From: Minisyncoccota bacterium
GTDB taxonomy: Bacteria; Patescibacteriota; Minisyncoccia; Phycocordibacterales; PALSA-1337
Length of the DNA stretch: 64,000 bases
Assembly: GCA_017991475.1 (NCBI GenBank)
Contig: JAGOQK010000001.1
Span: 105,689 to 169,688 of the forward strand
Direction: 5' to 3'
Shown: piece by piece, positions 2,093 through 62,013 of the stretch
Layout of the letters: each line of letters starts with the position of its first letter
Numbering within the stretch: the stretch's first letter is position 1
Program-made: the position numbers and the translations under genes
Notes under the pieces: generated by a model
Told to the model about the DNA's origin: nothing
Seen by the model: the letters and a program-made list of their open reading frames with translations, nothing else
Database searches by the model: none

Positions 2093-4936
2093 TTACTGCG
2101 TCAACACTGCCCTGACTTTTAAATTATCCCCAAGAGATGCTGGAGTGTACCTAATGTAGGTTGTTTCATTTCCCTTGTCTGTCGTATTGTAAGCACCCCA
2201 AGATGTACCATCAGTAGATTTCTGCCATGTACCACTATTCGTACTAGTCGTGTAATCATCGAGCAGAAGATCTTCTGTGACTGCATTATAAAGTCTGATT
2301 CGTAACGTAGGAACTGTTCCACCGAAGGTAGTCGCAAATCTCCAAACAAACTGCTTGGCTGCAGCATTTGATTTTACGACTGATGGTTGATAGTGAGAAT
2401 CCGTTTTATTTACCGCATCATCATAGACGACGACTATACCCATAATACGAGCAGGTACACACGACCACCCTATCGTATCAAACTCAAACATAAACTGTAT
2501 TCGAGGTGAACTGGCAAGACTTGAAAGGTCGCCGTCACGTGGAACAAGTGACCATTCTCCAGTATCTGTCAAAATACCTTTTGTTCTGAAATATATCTGG
2601 TACGGTTCTGTATTCACAAGAATTTCTCCCGTGCCCAACTGATCAGTATGAAAAATATTCACACTACTAAATTGTGCACAATCTGTCGTATAAAGAGCGG
2701 GTGTTATAACTCGCTGATTTGTGGTTGCTGCATACGTGGAGTGTGCTGAAAATGGCAGTGCATACATCTGTGATAATGCCGCAGTCACACCATGCTTCAC
2801 AATATGAACAATACCATTCTGACTCCAGATAGATGCCAGCTGAGATGACGTACTGAAATGTGGTTCTGTGCCACTATTCCAATCGATTACATAGGCTGAG
2901 CCGGCACTAATAGTTCCCGCTGTCGAACTCAACGTGATTGAAGTTATAGAAGTAAAAGCAGAAATCGTGAACCATGAAACTATAGCTGTAGGATCAGTAG
3001 AACCAAAACCGATACGAAAGCCAACCATAGCAGCTGTAAAAAATGTATTAGTACCAGTAACTGCCGTACCAGAAACCGCAACAGTACCTGAGGAAATATA
3101 TGCATTACCGAGCGCAAGAATTTGATCTTGTTGTTTGTCGTCAACGCCCCAGATATGATCAAAGGGAGAACCACTCAGATCAGGATACTGGGTAACATAA
3201 TGTCTGAGACCTGTGGCTCCTGTGGTGAGCACAATGAGTCTATCCATTCCGTCTGCAATTTCCACAGAGCTGAGTGCTGATGATGCTGGAGTAGAACTGA
3301 CACCACCTGTCGGAATTTCAGCCAAATTCTCTGATATCCATCCATTATTCCCCGCATATATTCTGAATATTGAAGCACGATAGATACGAGTATGGGTGAC
3401 GAAATAGATAGAAATTATACCAGCACCTGGACCATGATTAAGTGTTCCAATTCTTCCGTTATTGACACCAGAAACTGTTCCGTTCACAAGCTGTGGACCC
3501 GTACAGATGACATCAGCCGAATCAACTATGAAATTTGCTCCTGCACCTATCGTTCCAGCCGATGATGAAAGTGTTATTGAAGTTGTTGATGAAAAAGCAG
3601 AAATTGTGTACCACGTAGTGACATTCGCAGGACTTGTCGTTCCAAAACCAATTTTCATTCCAACCATTGCAGCGGTGAATGTCGTTCCACTTCCTGTGAC
3701 AGCTGTTCCCGTCACCTCGACAGTTCCGGTGGTATAGTACTCAATTGACATGAGCATCTTACCAGAAGTAAGAACACCTGTTGCTCGCAGATTATAACGG
3801 TATACTTTCAAATAAGTTGATCCAAAACCATCTATTACATACGCGTAATGAAGACCCTTATTAATTTCAGGCTCTATTGTCAATCCACAAGGGGTGATAT
3901 TGGTAACCACATTTGCTGTGGTACCAGCATCTGAAAGCCAATAGACTGCCTTGATGTTATCCGTGGTTGTTGCAAATGCGACAGTAGTCGTACCATTTGT
4001 AGTAAAATCAGAATAATTTACACCCTTAACCAAGTGTAATCCACCATTTGCGGCGGTGGTAGCATTTGTTGTAGTGATAGCAAATCTCAATTCTTCAATT
4101 ACATACGAACTCCCTGCACTGACTGTTCCTGCTGTCGAGGCAAGCGTGATACCCGTCTCACTATCAATACTAGATATCACATACCACGATACGATGGCAG
4201 TAGGATCAGTAGAACCAAAACCGATACGCGCTCCGACCGCCAACCCTTCCGTTTGCCACAATGTATCAGTACCTGTAACAGCAGTTGCTGCTACTTCGAC
4301 AGTTCCTGTGGTGTGTAGATATCGAAGTGCTCTGAAACCACGAATTGTGTGCGCTGTTGCGGAATTGAGTGTGGCAGCAATAAAGCCTTTCCATGTATAT
4401 ACAGAAGTGGTTTTATTGTACTCATACATACTAATTTCTCTTGCAGCAACTGAAGCAATTGAATTTTCAATAAGAAATACCCAGTCTATCGTTGAACTGT
4501 AGGTCATGGCGTGCGGATACATCATGGGCGTGTTGTATACGACCACATAGGCAGTACCAGCCGTGACAGGAGTAGCACCTACCGAAGGTGATATAGTCAT
4601 CCCTGTTGTAGATGCGCGTGCTGTTATTGAATACCACGTAGTGATCTTCGCTGGATCATTTGAACCGAAACCGATAGACATACCTATCATGCTCGTCAGA
4701 AAATTTGTACCAGAACCAGTGACAGCAGTAGTAGTTACCTGTACTGTTCCTACAGTATCAACTACTTCCTGCATAGGAAGAGTAATTCCTACCGGCAGTG
4801 GGCCAACGAATTTGTCTTCAGGGTTTGAACCCGTATTCTGAATCATCAATGTACCCAAACACGTTTTTGTGTAGTCATAAGAAGCGATTGGTGTCGTCTC
4901 TCCGGTGAATGTATGTTTGACTGCGCGTAGTGCCAT
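2093..4936 (-). CDS. Giant repeat protein, paralog 3 of a tandem triplet (947 aa), function unknown
   Basis: The N-terminus (MALRAVKHTFTGETTPIASYD...GTLMIQNTG) and C-terminus (YIRYTPASLGDNLKVRAVLTQ) are conserved with the two upstream paralogs. Four internal ~75-aa repeats carry the motif GTVxVxGTAVTGxGTxF...IGFGSTDPTxIVSWY...ITLSSxAGT. No signal peptide. The stop/start spacing to the next gene is 1 nt. Confidence 0.8.
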   Translation of the reverse strand: MALRAVKHTFTGETTPIASYDYTKTCLGTLMIQNTGSNPEDKFVGPLPVGITLPMQEVVDTVGTVQVTTTAVTGSGTNFLTSMIGMSIGFGSNDPAKITTWYSITARASTTGMTISPSVGATPVTAGTAYVVVYNTPMMYPHAMTYSSTIDWVFLIENSIASVAAREISMYEYNKTTSVYTWKGFIAATLNSATAHTIRGFRALRYLHTTGTVEVAATAVTGTDTLWQTEGLAVGARIGFGSTDPTAIVSWYVISSIDSETGITLASTAGTVSAGSSYVIEELRFAITTTNATTAANGGLHLVKGVNYSDFTTNGTTTVAFATTTDNIKAVYWLSDAGTTANVVTNITPCGLTIEPEINKGLHYAYVIDGFGSTYLKVYRYNLRATGVLTSGKMLMSIEYYTTGTVEVTGTAVTGSGTTFTAAMVGMKIGFGTTSPANVTTWYTISAFSSTTSITLSSSAGTIGAGANFIVDSADVICTGPQLVNGTVSGVNNGRIGTLNHGPGAGIISIYFVTHTRIYRASIFRIYAGNNGWISENLAEIPTGGVSSTPASSALSSVEIADGMDRLIVLTTGATGLRHYVTQYPDLSGSPFDHIWGVDDKQQDQILALGNAYISSGTVAVSGTAVTGTNTFFTAAMVGFRIGFGSTDPTAIVSWFTISAFTSITSITLSSTAGTISAGSAYVIDWNSGTEPHFSTSSQLASIWSQNGIVHIVKHGVTAALSQMYALPFSAHSTYAATTNQRVITPALYTTDCAQFSSVNIFHTDQLGTGEILVNTEPYQIYFRTKGILTDTGEWSLVPRDGDLSSLASSPRIQFMFEFDTIGWSCVPARIMGIVVVYDDAVNKTDSHYQPSVVKSNAAAKQFVWRFATTFGGTVPTLRIRLYNAVTEDLLLDDYTTSTNSGTWQKSTDGTSWGAYNTTDKGNETTYIRYTPASLGDNLKVRAVLTQ

Positions 4937-4937
4937 A

Positions 4938-7373
4938 TTAATTTTGTGTTAAATGTGCCCTCACTGATATACCATCCGTAAGTGCCGAGGGGGTATATCG
5001 TATGTAGGTAATATCGTTGGTCTTATCGGTACTATTATACGCTGTCCAGCTAGCCCCGTCGTCTATTGATTTGTGCCATGTTCCATTGGCTGAAGCTGCA
5101 GTAGTATCAGTAAACAAAGACGCATCCGTCTCAGCATTAAATAATTCAATCTTCAAATTTGGAACTGTGCCACCAAACCCATGACAAAATCTCCATGCAA
5201 ATCTTTCATTTGTTGCATCGGAATGTACTGTCGAAAGCTGATAATGTGAGTCAGTCGATCCATCTTCATACGTCACAGCTATACGCATCACTCGTGCTGG
5301 TAGACATAATCTGCCGATAGTATAAAACTCAAGCATGAATTGAATTGCATTTGCTGGTGACACAGAACTGAGATCTCCATTCCCTTCAACGAGCACCCAG
5401 GAGCTGGTAGCATCTGACGCAATATCAGCAGTACGGTAGTACACCCGAAACGATTCTGGCGACAATCTGAGCTCACCTGATCCAAGATACCTATCTTCAG
5501 TCACAATCACTTGATCAAATTTTACACAACCTGCTGTTGCGAGCGATGGAGTGATGACACGCTGGTGATTTGCGGGTGATACTGAATATGCATAAGTGGC
5601 ATGTGCACCAAACGGTAATGAGTACATTTGGTTCAATTGGGCTGTTGCCCCATTCCTGGTAATATGAACGATACCATTACTCACATCCGCAGATAATAAC
5701 TGTGAACCTGTATTAAAATGAACCACACCTTGTGAGCTTAGAAGAGACTGATCTTGCTGTTTATCGTCAACACCAAATACATGATCGAAGGGGGTTGTAT
5801 CAGTGGCAGGATACCGCGTCACATACTGACGATACGCAGCGTTTGCAGCATACGTAGTAATCAACAATTTATCGATAGTCGGCATATACTGTACGTTTAC
5901 CATGTTTCCTGTCGCAGGGAATGTCGAGATTCCACCCGGAGGAATCTCCTGCCTGATATTTGCAGCTGTGATGAATGTCGTATTACCAGCTGTAATGAGA
6001 GAAACATCAACACAATAGAGTCGTGTGAGCGTTACAAAATATAAATAGGATGAGCCTGAACCTGGACCATGCGCAAGTGTTTCAACTGTGCCATTATTCG
6101 CTGAAAGGTTGGGTATTGTTCCTGTTACAGCTTGTGTTCCTGTACTGACAATATTTGCACCAGCGAGTGTCATCTTCCCTGCCGCAACAGCATCATTCGC
6201 CCTGAGATTATACTTGAATATGCGTGCATTTGTTGTGTTCGTACCGTTCAGAATATAAGCAAAATGACTTGTCTTACTTGTTTCAGCTTCCAAAGCCAAA
6301 CCGCTTGCTGCTGTGTTCGTAACTGTGGCCGCATCTGCAAGCCAGTACACACCTCTCTGATTATCGATATTACTCGCAATCGAGGGAAATGTGTTTCCAG
6401 CCGTCGTGAAGTCAAGGTGACTTGCTCCTTTAAGGAGAAATAGTCCACCGTTTGTTGATGTTGTGTTTGTAAGTGATATAGCAAACCTCAACTCCTCAAT
6501 CACATATGGGGTACCTGCAGGGACAACTCCAGGTGAGGTAGTGATGTTGAGGGATGTATCACTGGCAATAGCTCCGATCTGGTACCACTGAGTGATTTGG
6601 GTTGGATCCGTTGATCCAAAACCAATACGGGGACCGAGACCTCCAGCAACAGATGTTGAAGCAGTTCCTGCAGCTATACGATCAGCAACAAATGTTGTAC
6701 TTGTTCCCGTCACTGTACACGATGCGATGACGTAGTTTGCAGATGCGGCAATGGCGCTCGACGCACCAGAAACTGTAATTGAAAGTGTTGAGGTAAATGT
6801 GATGATCGGGTACCAACAATTGATCTGGGCTACGTTCGTACTCCCAAAACCAATCATTTTACCAACCATTGCTACAGTAAATGTGGTACCAACTCCAGTT
6901 ACAACACCCGTAACTGCGAGAGCAACAGAAGTTCCTGCTGCATAATAGCTTACTGGTGCTGCTACTGCGACGGTACCTGTTGTGTGGAGATAGCGGAGCG
7001 CACGAAAGCCTCTATTTATATTTGTAGCAAAAGGTGTCGTGGCAGTAATAAAACCATTACGAGTATAGACAGAATTAACCTTGTCATATTCATACAGAAA
7101 TATTCTTTTTGCGGCAGTGATAGAGTTTTCGAGCATGAATACCCAATCAACCGTAGAACTATAGGGGACTACGTGTGGAAACATCATAGCCACAGCTGTT
7201 GATTCTTCCATCGGTCTCGCTATCGCGACAGGAAGCGGTCCGACGAAATTCTCTTGTGGAGTCAAACCAGTTTTTTGCACCATCAAAGTACCCAAGCTTG
7301 TCTTGGTCGAATCGTATGAAGCGATCGGTGTAGTAGCTCCTGTGAAAATATGTTCGTTAACTCGTAGTGACAT
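4938..7373 (-). CDS. Giant repeat protein, paralog 2 (811 aa), function unknown
   Basis: Shares the N-terminal module (MSLRVNEHIFTGATTPIASYD), the central blocks (GFRALRYLHTTGTV; DDKQQDQ; LAHGPGSG; IQFMLEFYTIG) and the C-terminal module (YIRYTPSALTDGISVRAHLTQN) with the flanking paralogs. Confidence 0.8.
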   Translation of the reverse strand: MSLRVNEHIFTGATTPIASYDSTKTSLGTLMVQKTGLTPQENFVGPLPVAIARPMEESTAVAMMFPHVVPYSSTVDWVFMLENSITAAKRIFLYEYDKVNSVYTRNGFITATTPFATNINRGFRALRYLHTTGTVAVAAPVSYYAAGTSVALAVTGVVTGVGTTFTVAMVGKMIGFGSTNVAQINCWYPIITFTSTLSITVSGASSAIAASANYVIASCTVTGTSTTFVADRIAAGTASTSVAGGLGPRIGFGSTDPTQITQWYQIGAIASDTSLNITTSPGVVPAGTPYVIEELRFAISLTNTTSTNGGLFLLKGASHLDFTTAGNTFPSIASNIDNQRGVYWLADAATVTNTAASGLALEAETSKTSHFAYILNGTNTTNARIFKYNLRANDAVAAGKMTLAGANIVSTGTQAVTGTIPNLSANNGTVETLAHGPGSGSSYLYFVTLTRLYCVDVSLITAGNTTFITAANIRQEIPPGGISTFPATGNMVNVQYMPTIDKLLITTYAANAAYRQYVTRYPATDTTPFDHVFGVDDKQQDQSLLSSQGVVHFNTGSQLLSADVSNGIVHITRNGATAQLNQMYSLPFGAHATYAYSVSPANHQRVITPSLATAGCVKFDQVIVTEDRYLGSGELRLSPESFRVYYRTADIASDATSSWVLVEGNGDLSSVSPANAIQFMLEFYTIGRLCLPARVMRIAVTYEDGSTDSHYQLSTVHSDATNERFAWRFCHGFGGTVPNLKIELFNAETDASLFTDTTAASANGTWHKSIDDGASWTAYNSTDKTNDITYIRYTPSALTDGISVRAHLTQN

Positions 7374-7374
7374 A

Positions 7375-10026
7375 CTAGTAAAGTGTCAGCAATGATCTGA
7401 CTTTTATATTGTCAGGCAAGGTTGCGGGAGTATATCGAATGTATGTTGTTTCGTTTCCCTTATCTGTCGTATTGTATGCGACCCATGTCGTGCCATCAGT
7501 TGTTTTTTCCCAGGTACCCGCAGGAGTAGAGGAAATATCATCTACAAGTAATCCACCTGTCACCGCATCGAGAAGTCTTATTCTGAGTGTCGGTACAGCA
7601 GAACCAAATGCTGTAGAAAAACGCCAAGCAAATTGTTTGCTTGCAAGTACCGTCTTCCCTGCAGAGGGTTGATAGTGTGGATCAGTTGTATAATCATCAT
7701 ACAATACCGCGAGTGACATGATACGACCCGGAATCCCAAGAAGACTGATGGTGACAAACTCAAACATAAACTGAATATTAGAAGCTGGTGACAAACCAGT
7801 AAGATCACCGTCTGCAGCAAGCAGTGTCCATTCTCCACTATTATCTGTAATGCCGTTTGTTCGGTAATACGTAAGGATAGAAGCAGTCGGTACTCGAAAT
7901 TCTTCACTACCAAGGTGGTCAACTGTTGATAGTAGAACTCTCGTATACGCGGCACAATCGGGTGTTGAGAGAGTTGGAGAGATTATTCTTTGGTTTGTTT
8001 CTGACGCATGAACCCAATGTGCCGACAACGGTAGTGCATACAATTGACATAATGCTGCAGTTGTACCGTGTTTAATGATATGCGCAACACCATTTTCACT
8101 CCATACTGAAGTAATCTGTGATGCGGTGTTGAAGTGAATAGCTGTGTTTGGATCAGCTAGAGATTGATCCTGCTGCTTATCGTCAAGACCAAAGAATCGA
8201 CTAAACTGGTCACCGGCTGCATCAGGATACTTTGTGACGTAGTGCTTGAATGCCGTCGCACCTGTGGTAAGCACAATCAAACGATCGATAGCATCTGCAA
8301 TCTCAATCATATTGAGAGCTCCTGTCGCTGGGAAGGTACTCGCGGATCCTGGGGGGATCTCTGGGCGATTGTCGGATATCCAACCAAGATTTCCTGAATA
8401 TATATTTGATAATGCCGCTCGGTAAATACGGCTTGCTGTCACAAAATAAAGCGACAGCTCCCCAGCACCTGGACCATGATTGAGTGTACCGACACGGCCA
8501 TTGTTGGCACCAATCACAGTACCTGTGACGAGCTGATTTCCTGTACAAATGACGTCTGCACTATCGATAATGTACGATGAGCCGCCTGCAATGGTACCAG
8601 CCGATGAAGAAAGCGTGATTGATGTTGTCGAGCTAAATGACTCTATCGTGTACCAAGTGGTAACAGTAGCGGGACTAGTCGTACCAAAACCAATTTTCAT
8701 TCCTACCATCGTTGCTGTAAACGTAGTACCAGAACCCGTCACTGCTGTTCCTGAAACTCCTACTGTACCTGTCGTATAGTATGCAATTGACATCAGCATC
8801 TTACCAGAAGTGATCGTACCAGTCGCACGAAGATTGTACCTATACACTTTCATGAATGTTGCACCCACCCCGTCGGGTACATATGCATAATGAAGGCCTT
8901 TATTGATTTCTGGTAGCAGAGTAAGTCCACAGGCAGCTGTATTTGTAGCTACATTGGCAGTCGTTCCCGCATCACACAACCAATATACCCCTCGCTGATT
9001 GTCAATTGCACTTGCAATAGCGGGAAATGTTGTTCCAGCAGTTCTAAAATCATAAAAGCCCGCGCCTTTGAGTAAGAAAAGTCCGCTATTAGTAGTTGTC
9101 GTTGCTTGTGATATGGTGAACGCAAACCTTAGTTCCTCTATCACATAGGGCGTACCAGCAGGAACGACTCCTGGTGACGTGTTGAGGTTGAGTGATGTAT
9201 CACTCGCTATAGCTCCAATGTGATACCAGCTTGTGATCTGGGTCGGATCAGTAGAACCAAAACCGATACGGGGACCAAGACCTCCTACTGCTGCAGTAAC
9301 TGTCGTACCCGCGGCTATACCTTCTTCTACAAATTTTGTTCCTGTGCCCGTTACTACACACGAGGCAATAACATAGTTTGCAGATGCAGCGATGACACTC
9401 GATGCTCCAGAAACTGTGATTGAAAGTGTTGAGGTGAATGTAATGATCGGGTACCAGCAGTTGATTTGAGCTACGTTTGTACTACCGAAGCCAATCATTT
9501 TACCTACCATAGCAGAAGTGAATGTGGTACCTACACCAGTCACTATACCACTCACTGCAAGAGCCACAGAAGTTCCTGCGGAATAATAGCTCACTGGTGC
9601 TGCAACAGCGACTGTGCCAGTGGTATGAAGATACCGGAGAGCACGAAATCCTCTTGTTGTGTTCGCATTTGCGGCACTCGGCAACGTTGCAGTAATAAAA
9701 CCCTTCCAATTGTATGTTGATTTTGTCTTATCATACTCATACAAGAAAATTTCACGGGCTGCCGTTGCTGTCGCAAGGTTACGAGTCACAAAAACCCAGT
9801 CTATCGTAGAGCTATAAGTTAGGACGTGAGGATACATCATACCAAGCGCAGTAGTTTCCTCAGCTGGTCGTGCAATACCTACAGGGAGTGGTCCAGCCCA
9901 ATTATCCTCAGGATAGGTTCCTGATTTTTGGACCATCAACGTACCTAAATTTGTCTTAGTAGGATCATAAGACGCTATAGGTGTTGTGGGTCCGTTGAAT
10001 ATATGTTCGACTGCGCGTAGTGCCAT
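7375..10026 (-). CDS. Giant repeat protein, paralog 1 (883 aa), function unknown
   Basis: Same conserved N-terminal, central and C-terminal modules as its paralogs, and the same IGFGSTDPT..W[YF] repeat units. Its first ~330 aa are nearly identical to paralog 2. Confidence 0.8.
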   Translation of the reverse strand: MALRAVEHIFNGPTTPIASYDPTKTNLGTLMVQKSGTYPEDNWAGPLPVGIARPAEETTALGMMYPHVLTYSSTIDWVFVTRNLATATAAREIFLYEYDKTKSTYNWKGFITATLPSAANANTTRGFRALRYLHTTGTVAVAAPVSYYSAGTSVALAVSGIVTGVGTTFTSAMVGKMIGFGSTNVAQINCWYPIITFTSTLSITVSGASSVIAASANYVIASCVVTGTGTKFVEEGIAAGTTVTAAVGGLGPRIGFGSTDPTQITSWYHIGAIASDTSLNLNTSPGVVPAGTPYVIEELRFAFTISQATTTTNSGLFLLKGAGFYDFRTAGTTFPAIASAIDNQRGVYWLCDAGTTANVATNTAACGLTLLPEINKGLHYAYVPDGVGATFMKVYRYNLRATGTITSGKMLMSIAYYTTGTVGVSGTAVTGSGTTFTATMVGMKIGFGTTSPATVTTWYTIESFSSTTSITLSSSAGTIAGGSSYIIDSADVICTGNQLVTGTVIGANNGRVGTLNHGPGAGELSLYFVTASRIYRAALSNIYSGNLGWISDNRPEIPPGSASTFPATGALNMIEIADAIDRLIVLTTGATAFKHYVTKYPDAAGDQFSRFFGLDDKQQDQSLADPNTAIHFNTASQITSVWSENGVAHIIKHGTTAALCQLYALPLSAHWVHASETNQRIISPTLSTPDCAAYTRVLLSTVDHLGSEEFRVPTASILTYYRTNGITDNSGEWTLLAADGDLTGLSPASNIQFMFEFVTISLLGIPGRIMSLAVLYDDYTTDPHYQPSAGKTVLASKQFAWRFSTAFGSAVPTLRIRLLDAVTGGLLVDDISSTPAGTWEKTTDGTTWVAYNTTDKGNETTYIRYTPATLPDNIKVRSLLTLY

Positions 10027-10760: not shown

Positions 10761-11741
10761 TTATACTTTGAGATACCTTCGAGCGGCAACGTAGCTCGCC
10801 AATCCCCCCACTACGACACCGAGACCCATTATGAGCAGAAATATCTGTGTGAAATTGGCCACGAAATAGCGGGAAAGGATATTCACTGCAAGCTCGAAAT
10901 CTGCTGCAACCTGAACACCAGCGAAACGAAGGACCAAAACATCACTCCAGTATGCAACTGCTGCCATACAGATGAGCGCTATGGTGCCTGACAATATGCC
11001 GTACATGACTCCAGAAACCACGAGCGGACCGCGAACGTAAATGTTACTTGCTCCTACAAGCTTCATGACGGATATCTCATCTTTCGAGGTATATACGATA
11101 AGACGAATAGTATTCCAAACGACCACAATCGACACTAATATTAATATGAGAGCTATAACAGTTCCCGCCTGCTCTACTGCAGGAATAATGCGCCCGAGAC
11201 GGTCAATAATAAGTTTGTTCTGTTGATAGTTGACCTTCTCGACTATCGGGTCACCGGAAGCATCTACAGGTGCCTTATTTTCAAGAAAATTTGCGATACT
11301 TCCATACTGACCAGGATCTTTGGCTTTGATATTGAGAACCGCAGGAAATGGGTTGGTGCCGATCTCGTCGAGACCCTGCATAATGAGGGCATTACCTTGC
11401 CACTTCTCTGAAAACTGCTCGAGAGCGAGATCACGAGAGACATACTCGACACGAGAAACCTCTGCGAGTCGTTCGATATCCTTCTTGAGTGACAAAATAT
11501 CATCTTCAGGGGCTTCGAGAGTGAAGTAGACATTGATATCAACTTTCTCCTTCACATCGGCAATAAGGCTCTTACTGAACGCTCCTGCAAATATAATGCC
11601 GCCCACTGTTACGAGCGATAGTGTCATGACGACAACTGCAGCAAATGACAGGAAGCCATTGCGCCAGAAATTGACGAAGCCTGTACGTGTAATTCTTTTA
11701 AAAGTGGTAAATATCATAAAAATGCAAAATTTAAAAATCAA
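10761..11741 (-). CDS. ftsX: Cell division ABC-transporter permease FtsX (the true start is probably an internal Met)
   Basis: Four-TM topology with a large periplasmic loop, the conserved KLVGA motif, and the usual position immediately downstream of ftsE. Confidence 0.8.
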   Translation of the reverse strand: MIFKFCIFMIFTTFKRITRTGFVNFWRNGFLSFAAVVVMTLSLVTVGGIIFAGAFSKSLIADVKEKVDINVYFTLEAPEDDILSLKKDIERLAEVSRVEYVSRDLALEQFSEKWQGNALIMQGLDEIGTNPFPAVLNIKAKDPGQYGSIANFLENKAPVDASGDPIVEKVNYQQNKLIIDRLGRIIPAVEQAGTVIALILILVSIVVVWNTIRLIVYTSKDEISVMKLVGASNIYVRGPLVVSGVMYGILSGTIALICMAAVAYWSDVLVLRFAGVQVAADFELAVNILSRYFVANFTQIFLLIMGLGVVVGGLASYVAARRYLKV

Positions 11742-11820
11742 AATGCAAAATTACAATTCAAAATGCAAAAATTTTGCTGGAGTTTCATTTTAAATTTTGA
11801 ATTGTAATTTTGCATTTTGA
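11738..11820. repeat. AT-rich perfect 27-bp inverted repeat (arms 11738-11764 and 11794-11820, 29-nt loop) overlapping three 20-nt-spaced direct copies of CAAAATGCAAAA
   Basis: Read directly from the sequence in the ftsE-ftsX intergenic region. Confidence 0.7.
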
Positions 11821-11835
11821 CTTTTAAATTTTTAT

Positions 11836-18984: not shown

Positions 18985-19041
18985 CTAAGGATAGCAAAAT
19001 GGCGGACGAGGTTCCACCTCGTCCGCCCGAACAGCTCCGCC

Positions 19042-21527: not shown

Positions 21528-21578
21528 GGGGATAGTATATCACAAGACCCTAGCCGAGGTGGAACCTCGGTTGACATT

Positions 21579-24819: not shown

Positions 24820-24853
24820 GTTGAGTTAATTATAGCGCATTGATTGTTTATCC

Positions 24854-24967
24854 GCAGCATCAGGACATGTGTATGTGTTCTGCTCATTATGCACAGTTTC
24901 TCGGTTTCTTGAGCATTCAGTTCACTTTGCGTCATGAGCAGAACACATACACATGTCCTGATGCTGC
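24854..24967. repeat. Perfect 34-bp inverted repeat (arms 24854-24887 and 24934-24967, 46-nt spacer) in the pilT-pilC intergenic region
   Basis: gcagcatcaggacatgtgtatgtgttctgctcat ... atgagcagaacacatacacatgtcctgatgctgc, read directly. Confidence 0.85.
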
Positions 24968-24974
24968 GAAACTA

Positions 24975-43574: not shown

Positions 43575-44021
43575 TTATCTATCAACGAACTCCCTCCTCA
43601 CATTCCTATCCGTCTCCCTCTTCTTGGTCGTCTCGCGCTTGTCATATTTTTTCTTGCCTCGCACGACACCAATAGAGACTTTGATAAGAGTATTCTTATT
43701 ATACACCTTTATAGGCACTATTGTCAAGCCCCTCCCCGACTCCATATCAGCGAGTTTTCTGATCTCCTCGTTCGTAAGTAGGAGCCTGCGATTGCGACGC
43801 GGTTCATACCCTTCAGGCGTATTATTCTCCTGATACGGAGACACGAGCATATTGACCACATACGCCTCACCGCCGCGCACAACGACATGCGCACCCTCGA
43901 GGGAGCCCTTCTTAGCCTTGATTGACTTGACCTCGAAGCCCTGGAGTTCGATGCCTGCATCGAACGTTTCCACAACCTCGTAGTCGAAGTGAATTTTGCC
44001 GTTGTCTATAAAAGTGACCAT
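43575..44021 (-). CDS. smpB: SsrA-binding protein SmpB
   Basis: 148 aa from MVTFIDNGKIHFDY, with the SmpB core and C-terminal basic tail (GKKKYDKRETTKKRE). Directly upstream of ssrA. Confidence 0.85.
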   Translation of the reverse strand: MVTFIDNGKIHFDYEVVETFDAGIELQGFEVKSIKAKKGSLEGAHVVVRGGEAYVVNMLVSPYQENNTPEGYEPRRNRRLLLTNEEIRKLADMESGRGLTIVPIKVYNKNTLIKVSIGVVRGKKKYDKRETTKKRETDRNVRREFVDR

Positions 44022-46667: not shown

Positions 46668-46792
46668 TCCACTTGAAACGCAAGGGGCGAGGCATGGGTA
46701 TTTTTGAGATGGTCATGCAGAACGGCGCACCAAAGTTTCGTGTACAAATACAACATGGCCATCTCAAAAATACCCATGCCTCGCCCCTTGCG
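46668..46792. repeat. Perfect 38-bp inverted repeat (arms 46668-46705 and 46755-46792, 49-nt spacer) immediately upstream of infC
   Basis: gaaacgcaaggggcgaggcatgggtatttttgagatgg ... ccatctcaaaaatacccatgcctcgccccttgcgtttc, read directly. Confidence 0.85.
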
Positions 46793-46838
46793 TTTCTCTT
46801 CCCCGCATGCTATAAATAACCCCTGTAATCCCAATCAA

Positions 46839-57282: not shown

Positions 57283-59448
<2,166 letters not shown>

Positions 59449-59490: not shown

Positions 59491-59847
59491 CTATCCCTTA
59501 TTCTTCTTCATAGTGATGATACTGGCTCCAAGAATATTCGCTATTTCCGTTGTCTCCTCAAGGATACTATTCGCCTGATTTTTCGGTAGCTTCCCTGTAT
59601 CTCGAGCTAAACCTATCCATAGTTTTGATTCATTAGCCGATTTCAAACTATGAGTATAGAAGTTTATGTAATCCTTTCGGGAGCTTGCTCCTTTTGCTTC
59701 TACTATGTTTGCTACAACTGATGTTCCACTTCTTATCAATTGATTAGCTATAGCTCGTGCAGATACATCCTTCGCAAATCCATCCACACATTTTACTATA
59801 CTTACTGCATACTTGTATAATCTTTGATCAAACTCCTTCTTTATCAT
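59491..59847 (-). CDS. Four-helix-bundle protein (23S rRNA intervening-sequence protein family), inserted between rpsG and fusA
   Basis: 118-aa all-helical protein with the family's AVSIVKCVDGF...ANIVEAKGASSRKDYINFYTHSLKSANES pattern. Confidence 0.6.
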   Translation of the reverse strand: MIKKEFDQRLYKYAVSIVKCVDGFAKDVSARAIANQLIRSGTSVVANIVEAKGASSRKDYINFYTHSLKSANESKLWIGLARDTGKLPKNQANSILEETTEIANILGASIITMKKNKG

Positions 59848-59883: not shown

Positions 59884-60354
59884 CTACCACGCAAAGTGAG
59901 CAAATGCCTTGTTGGCCTCAGCCATCTTGTGCATGTTCTCGCGCTTCTTGATAGCCTCACCCTCATTCTTGGATGCTGCGATGATCTCTTCGGCGAGCTT
60001 GATAGCGATCGGCTTACCCTTCTTGGAACGAGCCGCTTCGACGATCCACTTCATCGAGAGAGCCGAGCGGCGCTCTGGACGAACTTCGCGAGGAACCTGA
60101 TAGTTGGCACCTCCGACACGGCGGGAACGGACCTCCATAGCCGGTGAGGTGTTCTTGAGTGCGAGTTCGAAGACTTCGAGTGGATTCTCCACCTTGGCCT
60201 TATCCTTGATCTCCTTCATACAGTCAGCAACAATGGCGCGAGCGATGTTCTTCTTGCCAGACTCCATGATGTAGTTGGTAAACTTGCCGAGCTTAACAGA
60301 TTGGAAGTTTATGTCCGGCTTTATTTCTCTCTTTATGTTTAGTTTTCTTCGCAT
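59884..60354 (-). CDS. rpsG: 30S ribosomal protein S7
   Basis: 156 aa (MRRKLNIKREIKPD...) with canonical S7 conservation. Confidence 0.95.
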   Translation of the reverse strand: MRRKLNIKREIKPDINFQSVKLGKFTNYIMESGKKNIARAIVADCMKEIKDKAKVENPLEVFELALKNTSPAMEVRSRRVGGANYQVPREVRPERRSALSMKWIVEAARSKKGKPIAIKLAEEIIAASKNEGEAIKKRENMHKMAEANKAFAHFAW

Positions 60355-60366
60355 GATAGTTGGAGA

Positions 60367-60783
60367 TTACTTTGCCGCTTTCGGCTTCTTATTACCGTAC
60401 TGGCTTCGACCTTTCCTGCGCTTCTCGACACCTGCTGCATCGAGCACGCCACGAACTACTGTATAACGGAGACCAACGTCCTTGACGCGACCACCACGGA
60501 GGAGGACCACAGAGTGCTCCTGGAGGTTGTGACCCTCTCCTGGAACGTATGCGGTGACTTCCATACCGTTCGAAAGACGAACACGAGCAATCTTGCGGAT
60601 AGCTGAGTTTGGCTTCTTTGGGGTCTTGGTGGTGACCTTCACACATACTCCGCGCTTGAATGGAGCTGGGAAGAAGATCGGGCGGTTCTTGATGCTATTA
60701 AAAGTACGGGTCAAAGCAATAGACTTCGACTTGCGTGTGAAGCGGGTACGATTCCGCTTTGTGAGCTGATTGATTGTAGGCAT
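60367..60783 (-). CDS. rpsL: 30S ribosomal protein S12
   Basis: [15 protein letters not shown]...[10 protein letters not shown]; 138 aa. Confidence 0.95.
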
Positions 60784-60987
60784 TTGTAATTGTTAGCACC
60801 CTGAATTCTTCACCGCTTTTGGCTTGAGGTCCCCTTTCGGAGAATGCCTAGGCGATTACTCAGAATGCGTTGTTAATCGAACGCTGTTCTCTCGAAAGAG
60901 ACAGTGGGGATACCTTACCAGAGAAATATGAAGAGTGCAAGTGAAATATACCCCCCTCTTTGAATGCGACCATATAAACTATAGATA

Positions 60988-61350
60988 TAAAAAAGAGGGT
61001 GCCGGCAGTTGGACGTAACTGCACAACACCCTCCCACACAACTACGGAGGAACCTCCGCAGTAAATGATGAAATTGACTGGTTGCGCGACACTATTAGAC
61101 GAGCTGTCGCACAACCAGTTGCTCCGAATCGAGAAAGGAGGGAGCAACCTCACTTAATCTCGACGAATCAGGAATCGCAACCGAAGCGACGATTTCCCGA
61201 CTCTTCTGGTGGCTTCCGGCTGAGGCCTGGACGGGCGGAGGACGATGGATGCTAGCGGTGAAACCCGCGCGCCGAGCATCATACAGTTTCCGCGATTGGC
61301 CCCGCTTATGCGATAACGCCGGATGTTTGAAACGCCACAGGTACTTACCG
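60988..61350 (-). ncRNA. Candidate novel ~360-nt non-coding RNA with its own near-consensus promoter and intrinsic terminator, upstream of rpsL
   Basis: On the minus strand: TTGACA (61385-61380), a 17-nt spacer, TATACT (61362-61357). About 360 nt downstream: GAGGGUG...CACCCUC stem (61032-60994) followed by UUUUUU (60993-60988). The candidate rpsL promoter lies beyond it. No long ORF starts at the predicted TSS. Confidence 0.4.
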
Positions 61351-61356
61351 CTATAT

Positions 61357-61385
61357 AGTATAGCACCTTCGAGACTATTTGTCAA
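61357..61385 (-). promoter_or_regulatory. Near-consensus sigma70-type promoter (TTGACA-17 nt-TATACT)
   Basis: Read directly on the minus strand, immediately after the stop of the M50 protease gene and directed toward rpsL. Confidence 0.55.
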
Positions 61386-61407
61386 CTGAGGTGGAACCTC
61401 GACACAC

Positions 61408-62013
61408 CTATATGATCCCTATTCCCGTAAATGCCTTGAAAATAGGCCATATTATCGGGGATATAGCTTCCCAGAGGAAAAATACGACAACAATGATCAG
61501 GATCGGCGCGTACATCTCGAGCATATGACGCACCCGACCATACTGGCTTGGCAGGAATGAAAACAGAAGCTTCGATCCGTCCAGGGGCGGGATCGGGATA
61601 AGGTTGAAAACTGCAAGCACGATATTGATGATGACAATACGAGCAGATATTTCTATGAAAGGTGTCATCACCTCACCCATCATGCTCCTTATGAGGAGTC
61701 CGAATATAAGCGCAATCAAAATATTAGACGCGGGACCTGCAGCCGCAATGAGAAACTCACCCATGCGTCTATTTTTCAAATTATACGGATTGTATGGCAC
61801 GGGCTTGGCCCAGCCGAAAGTAAATCCGCCAAGCGAAGTCACGATAGGTACGAGAATTGAGCCGACCGGATCAATATGTTTGAACGGATTGAGCGTCAGT
61901 CTCCCCTGTAATCGAGCAGTAGGATCACCGAGACGGTCAGCCATGTAGCCGTGTGCGACTTCATGGATGATGATGGATAATATGAGAATGGCTATAGAAA
62001 GTATGGTGAGCAT
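61408..62013 (-). CDS. Site-2 protease-family (M50) zinc metalloprotease
   Basis: HExxH in TM1 (IIHEVAHGY) and multiple TM helices with the LDG motif (PIPPLDGSKL). 201 aa. Confidence 0.75.
   Translation of the reverse strand: MLTILSIAILILSIIIHEVAHGYMADRLGDPTARLQGRLTLNPFKHIDPVGSILVPIVTSLGGFTFGWAKPVPYNPYNLKNRRMGEFLIAAAGPASNILIALIFGLLIRSMMGEVMTPFIEISARIVIINIVLAVFNLIPIPPLDGSKLLFSFLPSQYGRVRHMLEMYAPILIIVVVFFLWEAISPIIWPIFKAFTGIGII

Follow-up and report, generated by a model that had tools for sequence, protein, structure and literature searches.

The intergenic region between the genes for an M50-family protease and ribosomal protein S12 (rpsL) in a 64,000-nucleotide (nt) stretch of a Minisyncoccota genome (contig JAGOQK010000001.1, forward-strand positions 105,689 to 169,688; hereafter the window, with positions counted from its first letter) raises the question of what a 624-nt gap between two such genes contains. 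A first-pass annotation had proposed that a near-consensus sigma70 promoter drives an RNA of about 360 nt without an open reading frame (ORF), ending in an intrinsic terminator upstream of the rpsL promoter, and had offered as identities either a novel small RNA (sRNA) or a highly diverged RNase P or large signal recognition particle (SRP) RNA. The reading that we prefer, with a little more than half of our confidence, is an independent gene for a structure-selected non-coding RNA of ~360 nt (~61350 to ~60990, minus strand) of an undescribed family, confined to a narrow subclade of the Paceibacterota (Parcubacteria, Taylorbacteria-like), whose product would be stable and trans-acting, with protein binding as its favoured mode of action. 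The novel sRNA remains a candidate, and a strengthened one, in view of its own predicted promoter and terminator, the lack of an ORF and of a match in Rfam, and compensatory changes in homologues.

For comparison, we assembled about 170 loci around M50 homologues from Genome Taxonomy Database (GTDB) genomes, metagenomes and assembled read sets, referred to below by L numbers. The proteins and contigs nearest to those of the window belong to Candidatus Parcubacteria / Paceibacterota metagenome-assembled genomes. In these relatives rpsL commonly follows M50, across a gap of anything from 48 nt to over 2 kb; many have a gap of 48-250 nt, so that 624 nt is indeed long for the group.

A predicted promoter-to-terminator unit between the M50 gene and rpsL

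The elements of the unit all lie on the minus strand, as do the genes around it. Listed in the direction of transcription, they are:

61357 to 61385, minus strand: sRNA promoter, with the -35 box TTGACA at 61385-61380, a 17-nt spacer, TG at 61365-61364 and the -10 box TATACT at 61362-61357
61340 to 61352, minus strand: predicted transcription start (61352-61350, placed by its distance from the -10 box) and 5'-terminal mini-hairpin GGUAAGUACC (61349-61340)
61209 to 61338, minus strand: 5' multibranch domain closed by GUGGC/GCCAC, of variable sequence, present only in four long homologues
61165 to 61203, minus strand: hairpin H2 with a UUCG tetraloop tip, from minimum free energy (MFE) folds
61128 to 61164, minus strand: hairpin H3, its 5' arm rich in purines and its 3' arm in pyrimidines, from folds of the long forms
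61077 to 61119, minus strand: hairpin H4, a near-perfect stem of 17 base pairs (bp; -25.8 kcal/mol), first element of the conserved 3' core
61063 to 61076, minus strand: U-rich linker UCAAUUUCAUCAUU, predicted to be largely single-stranded
61041 to 61062, minus strand: hairpin H5 (-13.4 kcal/mol) with the conserved 9-mer GGUUCCUCC at 61054-61046
60989 to 61040, minus strand: UGUGUG spacer (61040-61035), terminator GGAGGGUGUUG...CGGCACCCUCU (61034-60994) and U6 (60994-60989), from folds

The promoter begins 22 nt past the M50 stop codon, matches the sigma70 consensus at 11 of 12 positions and was the top site in a 3-kb scan. Only two sites with at least 11 matches occur in the whole window; Markov-simulated windows contain a mean of 1.1 such sites, or 0.03 with the TG extension. 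The same architecture is kept at the same place, 10-35 nt after the M50 stop codon, in L082, L084, L002, L089, L168, L004, L006 and others, and the first five of these also keep the extended -10 region GGTGCTAT. The near-consensus promoter of the first-pass annotation (TTGACA-17-TATACT) is therefore borne out, with the addition of its TG extension and its conservation in related genomes. At the 5' end of the predicted RNA, the motif GUAC(N)AGUAC is retained both in the long forms and in the short form of L168.

At the other end of the unit, an interrupted stem of 17 bp (-26.6 kcal/mol) leads into U6 (61034-60989), in agreement with the intrinsic terminator proposed earlier; a simple terminator scanner skipped it because the stem has an internal bulge. 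The RNA as a whole, terminator included, is predicted to be highly structured, with an MFE of -156.3 kcal/mol compared with -119.2 +/- 5.2 for shuffled sequences (z = -7.1; opposite strand, z = -4.8). Its description as GC-rich holds only modestly, the GC content being 0.53-0.59 against roughly 0.45-0.55 in the flanks. The hairpin noted earlier as CGGAGG-AA-CCUCCG is real and corresponds to H5, but it had been read on the plus strand, and the RNA itself contains CGGAGGUUCCUCCG (61059-61046).

We rejected a protein-coding reading. Among the four long homologues, the ORFs have nothing in common, whether sense or antisense, so that no ORF is conserved on either strand, and the 96-, 70- and 97-aa frames have no Pfam match. 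The earlier view of an ORF-less transcript is upheld, since the 96- and 70-aa frames also begin upstream of the likely start. In L082, a gene caller places a 116-aa antisense ORF over the sRNA; it has no counterpart in the window and is not conserved.

A conserved 3' core with compensatory changes

When the whole gap was used as a profile, wide conservation proved to lie in the ~150 nt that precede rpsL and not in the sRNA, across which only the nearest genome, L002, aligned, and weakly. Asked whether relatives share sequence upstream of rpsL, the comparison thus gives a divided answer: they share a conserved rpsL leader, described below, and the sRNA itself is found only in a few close relatives. 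L002, with an M50 protein of about 89-90% identity and an S12 protein of 100%, aligns at the promoter, at one central hairpin and at the terminator; the rest of the sRNA is 28-56% identical compared with 86-94% for the rpsL leader. L082 (M50 92%) is intermediate between the window and L002 and provides clean compensatory changes, such as GCGACA/UGUCGC to GUGGUG/CACCGC in H4. This locus also has an insertion of ~115 nt (L082 2350-2470), absent from the window, that separates the sRNA terminator from the rpsL promoter.

A covariance model built from the 3' 130 nt, the core of the RNA, and searched in the ~170 loci gave the following matches:

Window (= L001): 144 bits
L082 / L083: 140 bits
L002: 112 bits
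L084-L087: 69.5 bits
L089 (= L167): 50.6 bits
L168 / L169: 34 bits

These represent six distinct core sequences, all located between M50 and rpsL on the coding strand, and the model found nothing convincing elsewhere in the ~170 loci from related genomes and metagenomes. The shared 130-nt core consists of H4, the U-rich linker, H5 with GGUUCCUCC, UGUGUG and the terminator with its GGGAGGG. Plain MAFFT alignments, whether of the full-length RNAs or of the leader, misaligned the variable stems and so yielded a poor RNAalifold consensus; a model-guided alignment together with per-sequence folds was used instead. In this alignment of six sequences, 94.7% of core cells are paired, and shifting the 3' partners by 1-3 columns lowers this to 37-54%; both sides have changed in 26 of the 36 pairs, and covariation scores 0.685, a value that none of 500 shuffles reached and that falls to 0.10-0.19 with slid partners. 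Changes on both sides affect 11 of the 14 modelled pairs in H4 (96% of cells paired) and 8 of the 9 pairs in H5, and the 11 modelled outer pairs of the terminator are 98.5% paired. By our own tally of pair types, G-U pairs make up about 12% of paired core cells; since these would be A-C mismatches in an antisense transcript, the minus strand would be the functional one. Three hallmarks of a stand-alone sRNA gene are accordingly found here, namely a predicted promoter and intrinsic terminator of its own, no conserved coding and compensatory changes, the last in an alignment fitted to the model.

Conservation of sequence, as distinct from pairing, is confined to this core, where it comprises the linker, GGUUCCUCC and UGUGUGGGAGGGUGU; the 5' arm of the terminator, GGGAGGGUGU, is also conserved as sequence. 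The linker is U-rich in every member (UUUCAUCAUUU, UUUUAUUAUUU, UUUCUUAUUU, UUUCUUCAUUU, UUUUUUACUUUUU and UUUCUUAUUUU), and the 9-mer or a near copy of it occurs in 9 of 10 units at this locus, in a pairing register that varies by species.

The 5' 220 nt are found only in the four long forms and are barely alignable, but have a similar layout when folded separately. The multibranch domain closed by GUGG(C)/(G)CCAC is clear in the MFE folds of the window, L084 and L002, less clear in L082, and 28-44% identical between the window and L002. The H2 tip GCUUCGG is kept in the window and L082, with a hairpin of another tip at the same place in L084 and L002, and H3 is formed in all four long forms from differing sequences (UCGAGA../..UCUCGA, CCUG../..CAGG, CCAGGG../..CCCUGG and CCUGG../..CCAGG).

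Among homologues, unit lengths range from 376 nt down to 111 nt, the latter in L168, and L089 has the core alone, 140 nt, behind a perfect TTGACA-17-TATAAT promoter. A second model made from all six sequences gave marginal matches (E 0.004-0.29) at the same place in L004, L020, L005, L172 and L003. Analogous units were recognised by eye in L004, L005, L006, L092 and L172, with L021, L022 and L176 similar but less fully inspected. In these, -35 (TTGAC-type) and -10 (TAnnnT) boxes 16-18 nt apart, in some cases with TG, lie 10-35 nt after the M50 stop codon and precede an RNA of roughly 100-245 nt (z -4.4 to -7.6), usually with a GGUUCCUCC hairpin, whose terminator lies 2-55 nt before the rpsL -35 box. 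Overall, the locus transcripts of 11 species have z-scores of -4.1 to -10.0. On this comparative evidence the sRNA is lineage-restricted, dispensable, quickly evolving and apparently selected for structure, a combination that fits a lineage-specific accessory RNA, and the series from 376 nt through 111 nt to none implies that a structured RNA can quickly grow, shrink and vanish within one genus-level clade.

Comparison with known RNA families

Searches of the whole window with Rfam 15 at gathering thresholds returned only one transfer-messenger RNA (tmRNA) and eight transfer RNAs. At E <= 10, the 800 nt from 60700 to 61500 gave no match on the sRNA strand and three chance-level matches on the other, and ten homologous loci searched at E <= 1 gave only two chance-level matches, both outside the unit. 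The check recommended by the first-pass annotation, with covariance models for RNase P, SRP, 6S and T-box RNAs, has thus been carried out without a match to a known family, and agrees with the absence of their signatures that had been noted by eye. Both strands of the RNase P helix P4 are missing (best match to CR-I, GAGGAAAGUCCGG, with 4 of 13 positions mismatched, and to CR-V, ACAGAANCCGGCUUA, with 6 of 15). For SRP domain IV, the mark of which is a GNAR tetraloop accompanied by conserved loops of symmetric and asymmetric type, the E. coli string is matched at best with 6 of 17 positions different, at a site that neither L082 nor L084 conserves. The best match to the T-box core (3 of 13 mismatches) is at a non-conserved place, and the downstream gene, rpsL, has its own promoter. 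Five homologues folded by MFE and centroid gave rows of independent hairpins and not the rod with a central bubble that typifies 6S RNA. The loops (AAGU, AUAA, UUCG, UUGCUC, GUUC and others) share no GGA motif and the only two GGA triplets of L089 are both within stems; with no motif repeated across hairpin loops, a Csr-like multi-site sponge was rejected.

By class, then, this is an ordinary stand-alone bacterial sRNA gene, outstanding in its size, its degree of structure and its host, and belonging to no described family. Genes for trans-encoded sRNAs, for example RsaE/RoxS of Firmicutes with their C-rich loops, generally consist of a sigma70 promoter, a structured body and a Rho-independent terminator. 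The window sRNA resembles them as an intergenic, ORF-less unit running from promoter to terminator, with a conserved motif rich in pyrimidines and in C (UUCCUCC) in or close to the tip of a hairpin, unpaired U-rich sequence beside the terminator, and rapid turnover with a narrow taxonomic range. In contrast to them, it is long (~360 nt) and far more structured (z = -7), leaving little single strand; it resembles no Rfam sRNA either in sequence or by model, and the Shine-Dalgarno target of C-rich loops is not used here, as none of 52 genes has GGAGG upstream. Stable RNAs that sequester proteins or bind RNA polymerase (6S RNA, mycobacterial Ms1 and CsrB/RsmZ) form a second group, which shares with it a strong promoter, a highly structured body of 100-400 nt, conservation of structure over sequence and variable length. 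However, no Rfam match links it to them; it lacks the central-bubble rod of 6S and is dispensable in close relatives, which 6S is not in most lineages, and its loops lack the repeated GGA motifs of CsrB.

The sRNA does not appear to be a repeat or mobile element, a candidate that we rejected: no second copy is present in the window, blastn against phages and plasmids gave no match, and 75 viral contigs that share a 15-mer with it do so by chance, since the covariance model finds nothing there.

Possible function of the sRNA and alternative explanations

The hairpins at both the 5' and 3' ends would make the released RNA stable, and it would act in trans as a free RNA through its conserved 3' core. 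Binding to a protein, as scaffold or by sequestration, is favoured over a classical antisense role by seed pairing in view of the near-fully double-stranded fold, the near-perfect stems of 14-17 bp and a motif kept as sequence in a varying register. The conserved U-rich single strand, together with a 9-mer whose sequence persists while its register shifts, fits recognition by a protein better than an antisense seed, although confidence in the mechanism is modest. The base-pairing tests that failed likewise favour a free, stable, protein-binding RNA. Pairing between the core and the rpsL leader was rejected, as the duplex was no better than with shuffled leaders (z -1.3 to +0.5) and involved no conserved site. 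Sites complementary to GGUUCCUCC number 17 in the window compared with 10 expected, which is not significant as 6 of 100 shuffles reach 17; without significant enrichment of such sites, and with no gene among the 52 using GGAGG, mimicry of the anti-Shine-Dalgarno sequence was also rejected. As a guess, the adjoining operon for S12, S7 and elongation factor G (EF-G) might suggest a link to translation or ribosome synthesis.

Several points weigh against this interpretation. Sequence-based prediction underlies the promoter, the start site, termination and stability alike, and neither a target nor a partner of the sRNA emerged from the analysis. The pair counts come from six sequences in an alignment fitted to the model structure and hence biased towards pairing. 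The unit is absent from L170 (M50 81%) and L174 (83%), where the rpsL promoter directly follows M50, and such patchy presence, together with the near-neutral divergence of the 5' part, would also be expected of a weakly selected or tolerated transcript. Finally, its fixed position directly upstream of the rpsL promoter could reflect a role in cis or at the DNA level instead. The alternatives that these points raise concern the following surroundings of the unit:

61408 to 62013, minus strand: M50-family protease gene (Pfam PF02163), with its stop codon at 61408
61388 to 61400, minus strand: gene-end hairpin GAGGUUCCACCUC, just past the M50 stop codon, upstream of the sRNA promoter and outside the sRNA
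60912 to 60940, minus strand: rpsL promoter TTGCAC-14-TGG-TAAGGT, starting 48 nt past the sRNA terminator and outside the sRNA
60784 to 60906, minus strand: conserved, structured rpsL 5' leader, from a profile search (core of the hidden Markov model, 60864-60793)
60367 to 60783, minus strand: rpsL (S12)
59884 to 60354, minus strand: rpsG
59491 to 59847, minus strand: ORF of the 23S_rRNA_IVP four-helix-bundle family (Pfam E = 2e-21)
57283 to 59448, minus strand: fusA

By weight, these alternatives rank as a distal promoter with attenuator, a weakly selected transcript and a transcription-level device. The first, which we consider unlikely although it is the strongest of them, is a cis-acting module of the str operon, in which the sRNA promoter would serve the operon from a distance (P1) and the "sRNA" would be its long leader, with a regulated attenuator at the end. 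Pairings 1:2 and 3:4 would be provided by H5 (GGAGG:CCUCC) and by the terminator (GGGAGGG:CCCUC), the CCUCC-GGAGG pairing (2:3) would be the antiterminator, perhaps controlled by a ribosomal protein, and read-through would add to the transcription of rpsL-rpsG-fusA. This would account for a unit that invariably shares the orientation of rpsL and stops 2-55 nt short of its -35 box (except in L082, with its ~115-nt insertion), as well as for the conservation as sequence of both GGUUCCUCC and GGGAGGGUG, which are complementary over 5-6 bp. There is also precedent in the attenuation of ribosomal protein operons, as the S10 operon of E. coli is under attenuation control by L4; the unit resembles such leaders (the S10 leader with L4, or the action of S7 on the str messenger RNA, mRNA) in lying directly upstream of and co-oriented with rpsL-rpsG-fusA and in its terminator hairpin. 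Energetically, however, the terminator (17 bp, -26.6 kcal/mol) and H5 (-13.4 kcal/mol) outweigh an antiterminator of 5-6 bp with a 9-12-nt loop, and L002 lacks GGUUCCUCC yet keeps the terminator. Complementarity between the core and the rpsL leader is, as above, not significant. Moreover, unlike a ribosomal protein leader, the sRNA is separated from rpsL by a strong terminator and a conserved promoter, the true leader being 60906-60784. The existence of this separate promoter downstream of the sRNA terminator (60940-60912), as first proposed from the window, is confirmed by its conservation: hexamers differ from consensus, but the TTGC-type -35 box, the spacing and the extended -10 box TGnTAnnnT are shared by relatives with and without the sRNA unit, which indicates that the sRNA is not simply an operon leader and that the rpsL promoter suffices alone where the unit is missing.

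Somewhat less probable still is a weakly selected or non-functional transcript, arising from a lineage-specific insertion between M50 and rpsL with a chance promoter and hairpins that is tolerated and decaying. The patchy distribution, with L170 and L174 devoid of the unit, the large differences in homologue size and the contrast between the 5' domain (28-56% identity to L002) and the neighbouring leader (86-94%) are all in keeping with this. Random decay, on the other hand, would not keep a near-perfect promoter, a strong terminator and z-scores of -4 to -10 in every species, together with 26 pairs changed on both sides, and the sequence lacks phage, plasmid or viral similarity and a second copy in the window.

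We give slightly less credence again to a device at the level of DNA or transcription, for which the acts of transcribing and terminating beside the rpsL promoter would matter and the RNA would be an inert folded by-product, for example by insulating rpsL from M50 read-through or by loading RNA polymerase at the maximal-strength sRNA promoter and passing it to the weaker rpsL promoter through sliding after termination. If true, it would explain why 11 species keep the position, orientation, promoter strength and terminator but let the RNA drift in length (about 100-376 nt) and sequence, and in several species the T-run of the terminator abuts the rpsL -35 box. Insulation would nonetheless need a terminator alone, whereas compensatory changes retain H4 and H5, both unneeded for termination, and GGUUCCUCC and the linker are conserved as sequence; in addition, we know of no direct in vivo evidence of polymerase recycling in any such organism, which we count against this explanation.

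A highly diverged housekeeping RNA (RNase P, large SRP or 6S), the other identity first proposed, has a size of ~360 nt, a multibranch 5' domain followed by several hairpins reminiscent of RNase P RNA (RF00010/RF00011), a strong promoter, rich structure and the lack of any other RNase P, SRP or 6S gene in the 64-kb window (Rfam) in its favour, but is essentially refuted by the missing model matches and signature motifs, by a row of hairpins that is neither a 6S rod with a central bubble nor closed by the P1 end pairing of RNase P, by homologues of 111-140 nt that lack two thirds of the molecule, by its absence at the locus in L170 and L174, and by a divergence far too great for genomes that encode the same S12. 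It follows that no RNase P or SRP gene has been missed in the long M50-rpsL gap.

The rpsL leader and translation signals

The profile of the rpsL leader gave 42 matches in 42 sources, one in each and always on the rpsL strand, and the match lies 10-123 nt before the ATG wherever rpsL is in the sequence (39 of 42). They include the window, L002-L022, L088-L097 and L170-L177, and the leader occurs only where S12 is at least ~86% identical, save for a weak match in L007, whose sequence includes 37 S12 residues. The leader has the form UGAGUA-AUCG[stem]CGGU-GAAGA-AUUCAGGAUUGCC, with an inner stem formed from differing complementary sequence in almost every species and CUCA kept in a terminal or internal loop. 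It has no Rfam match (E <= 10 for the window region, E <= 1 for ten loci), and a survey of ribosomal protein leaders lists none for S12. These features make it a good candidate for an autoregulatory S12/S7 leader, which would represent a new type of ribosomal protein leader. The leader 7-8-mers UGAGUAA, GGUGAAG and AAGCGGUG match the E. coli 16S ribosomal RNA (rRNA) sequence, but as about 2.7 such matches are expected by chance, rRNA mimicry was dropped.

The lack of GGAGG upstream of the 52 long ORFs of the window is accompanied by the absence of any enriched Shine-Dalgarno-like motif, and many window genes have a TATAAT-like box that ends 5-15 nt before the ATG. With -10 boxes so close to the start codon, this suggests that the mRNAs may be mostly leaderless or near-leaderless. 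About half of Parcubacteria lack the anti-Shine-Dalgarno motif in 16S rRNA (PMC9297842), and a window without a Shine-Dalgarno signal fits this published loss in part of the group. In such a seemingly leaderless, Shine-Dalgarno-free genome, a structured rpsL leader of ~120 nt is conspicuous. A limited search found no paper describing non-coding or regulatory RNAs of the Candidate Phyla Radiation (CPR)/Patescibacteria, Parcubacteria sRNAs included; the sRNA and the rpsL leader offer a concrete entry to RNA-based regulation in these uncultivated cells with reduced genomes.

Other features of the window

The 23S_rRNA_IVP ORF (59491-59847, minus strand) sits between rpsG and fusA, has a local GC content of 0.32-0.40 compared with ~0.5 around it, and from this low GC content looks like an insertion into the str operon. 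The sole 12/12 sigma70 site in the window, TTGACA-18-TATAAT at 43698-43727 on the minus strand, is located inside the 3' end of an smpB-like ORF; the tmRNA gene (43491-43124) begins about 200 nt downstream of the site, which may be an internal ssrA promoter or a chance occurrence. Three tandem large paralogous ORFs of 947, 811 and 883 aa occupy 2093-10026 on the minus strand and contain repeated segments that are 60-80% identical (repeat families D1-D8). Three near-perfect long inverted repeats, with arms of 43-45 nt that are 93-98% complementary, are found at 11726-11832, 24853-24968 and 46675-46796. The palindrome GAGGT-NNN-ACCTC, with the centre GGAACC/GGTTCC, has three exact copies (19008-19020, 21556-21568 and 61388-61400), all directly after gene ends, the copy at 19008 forming the tip of a longer terminator hairpin; they may represent a recurring gene-end hairpin element, and resemble hairpin H5 of the sRNA.

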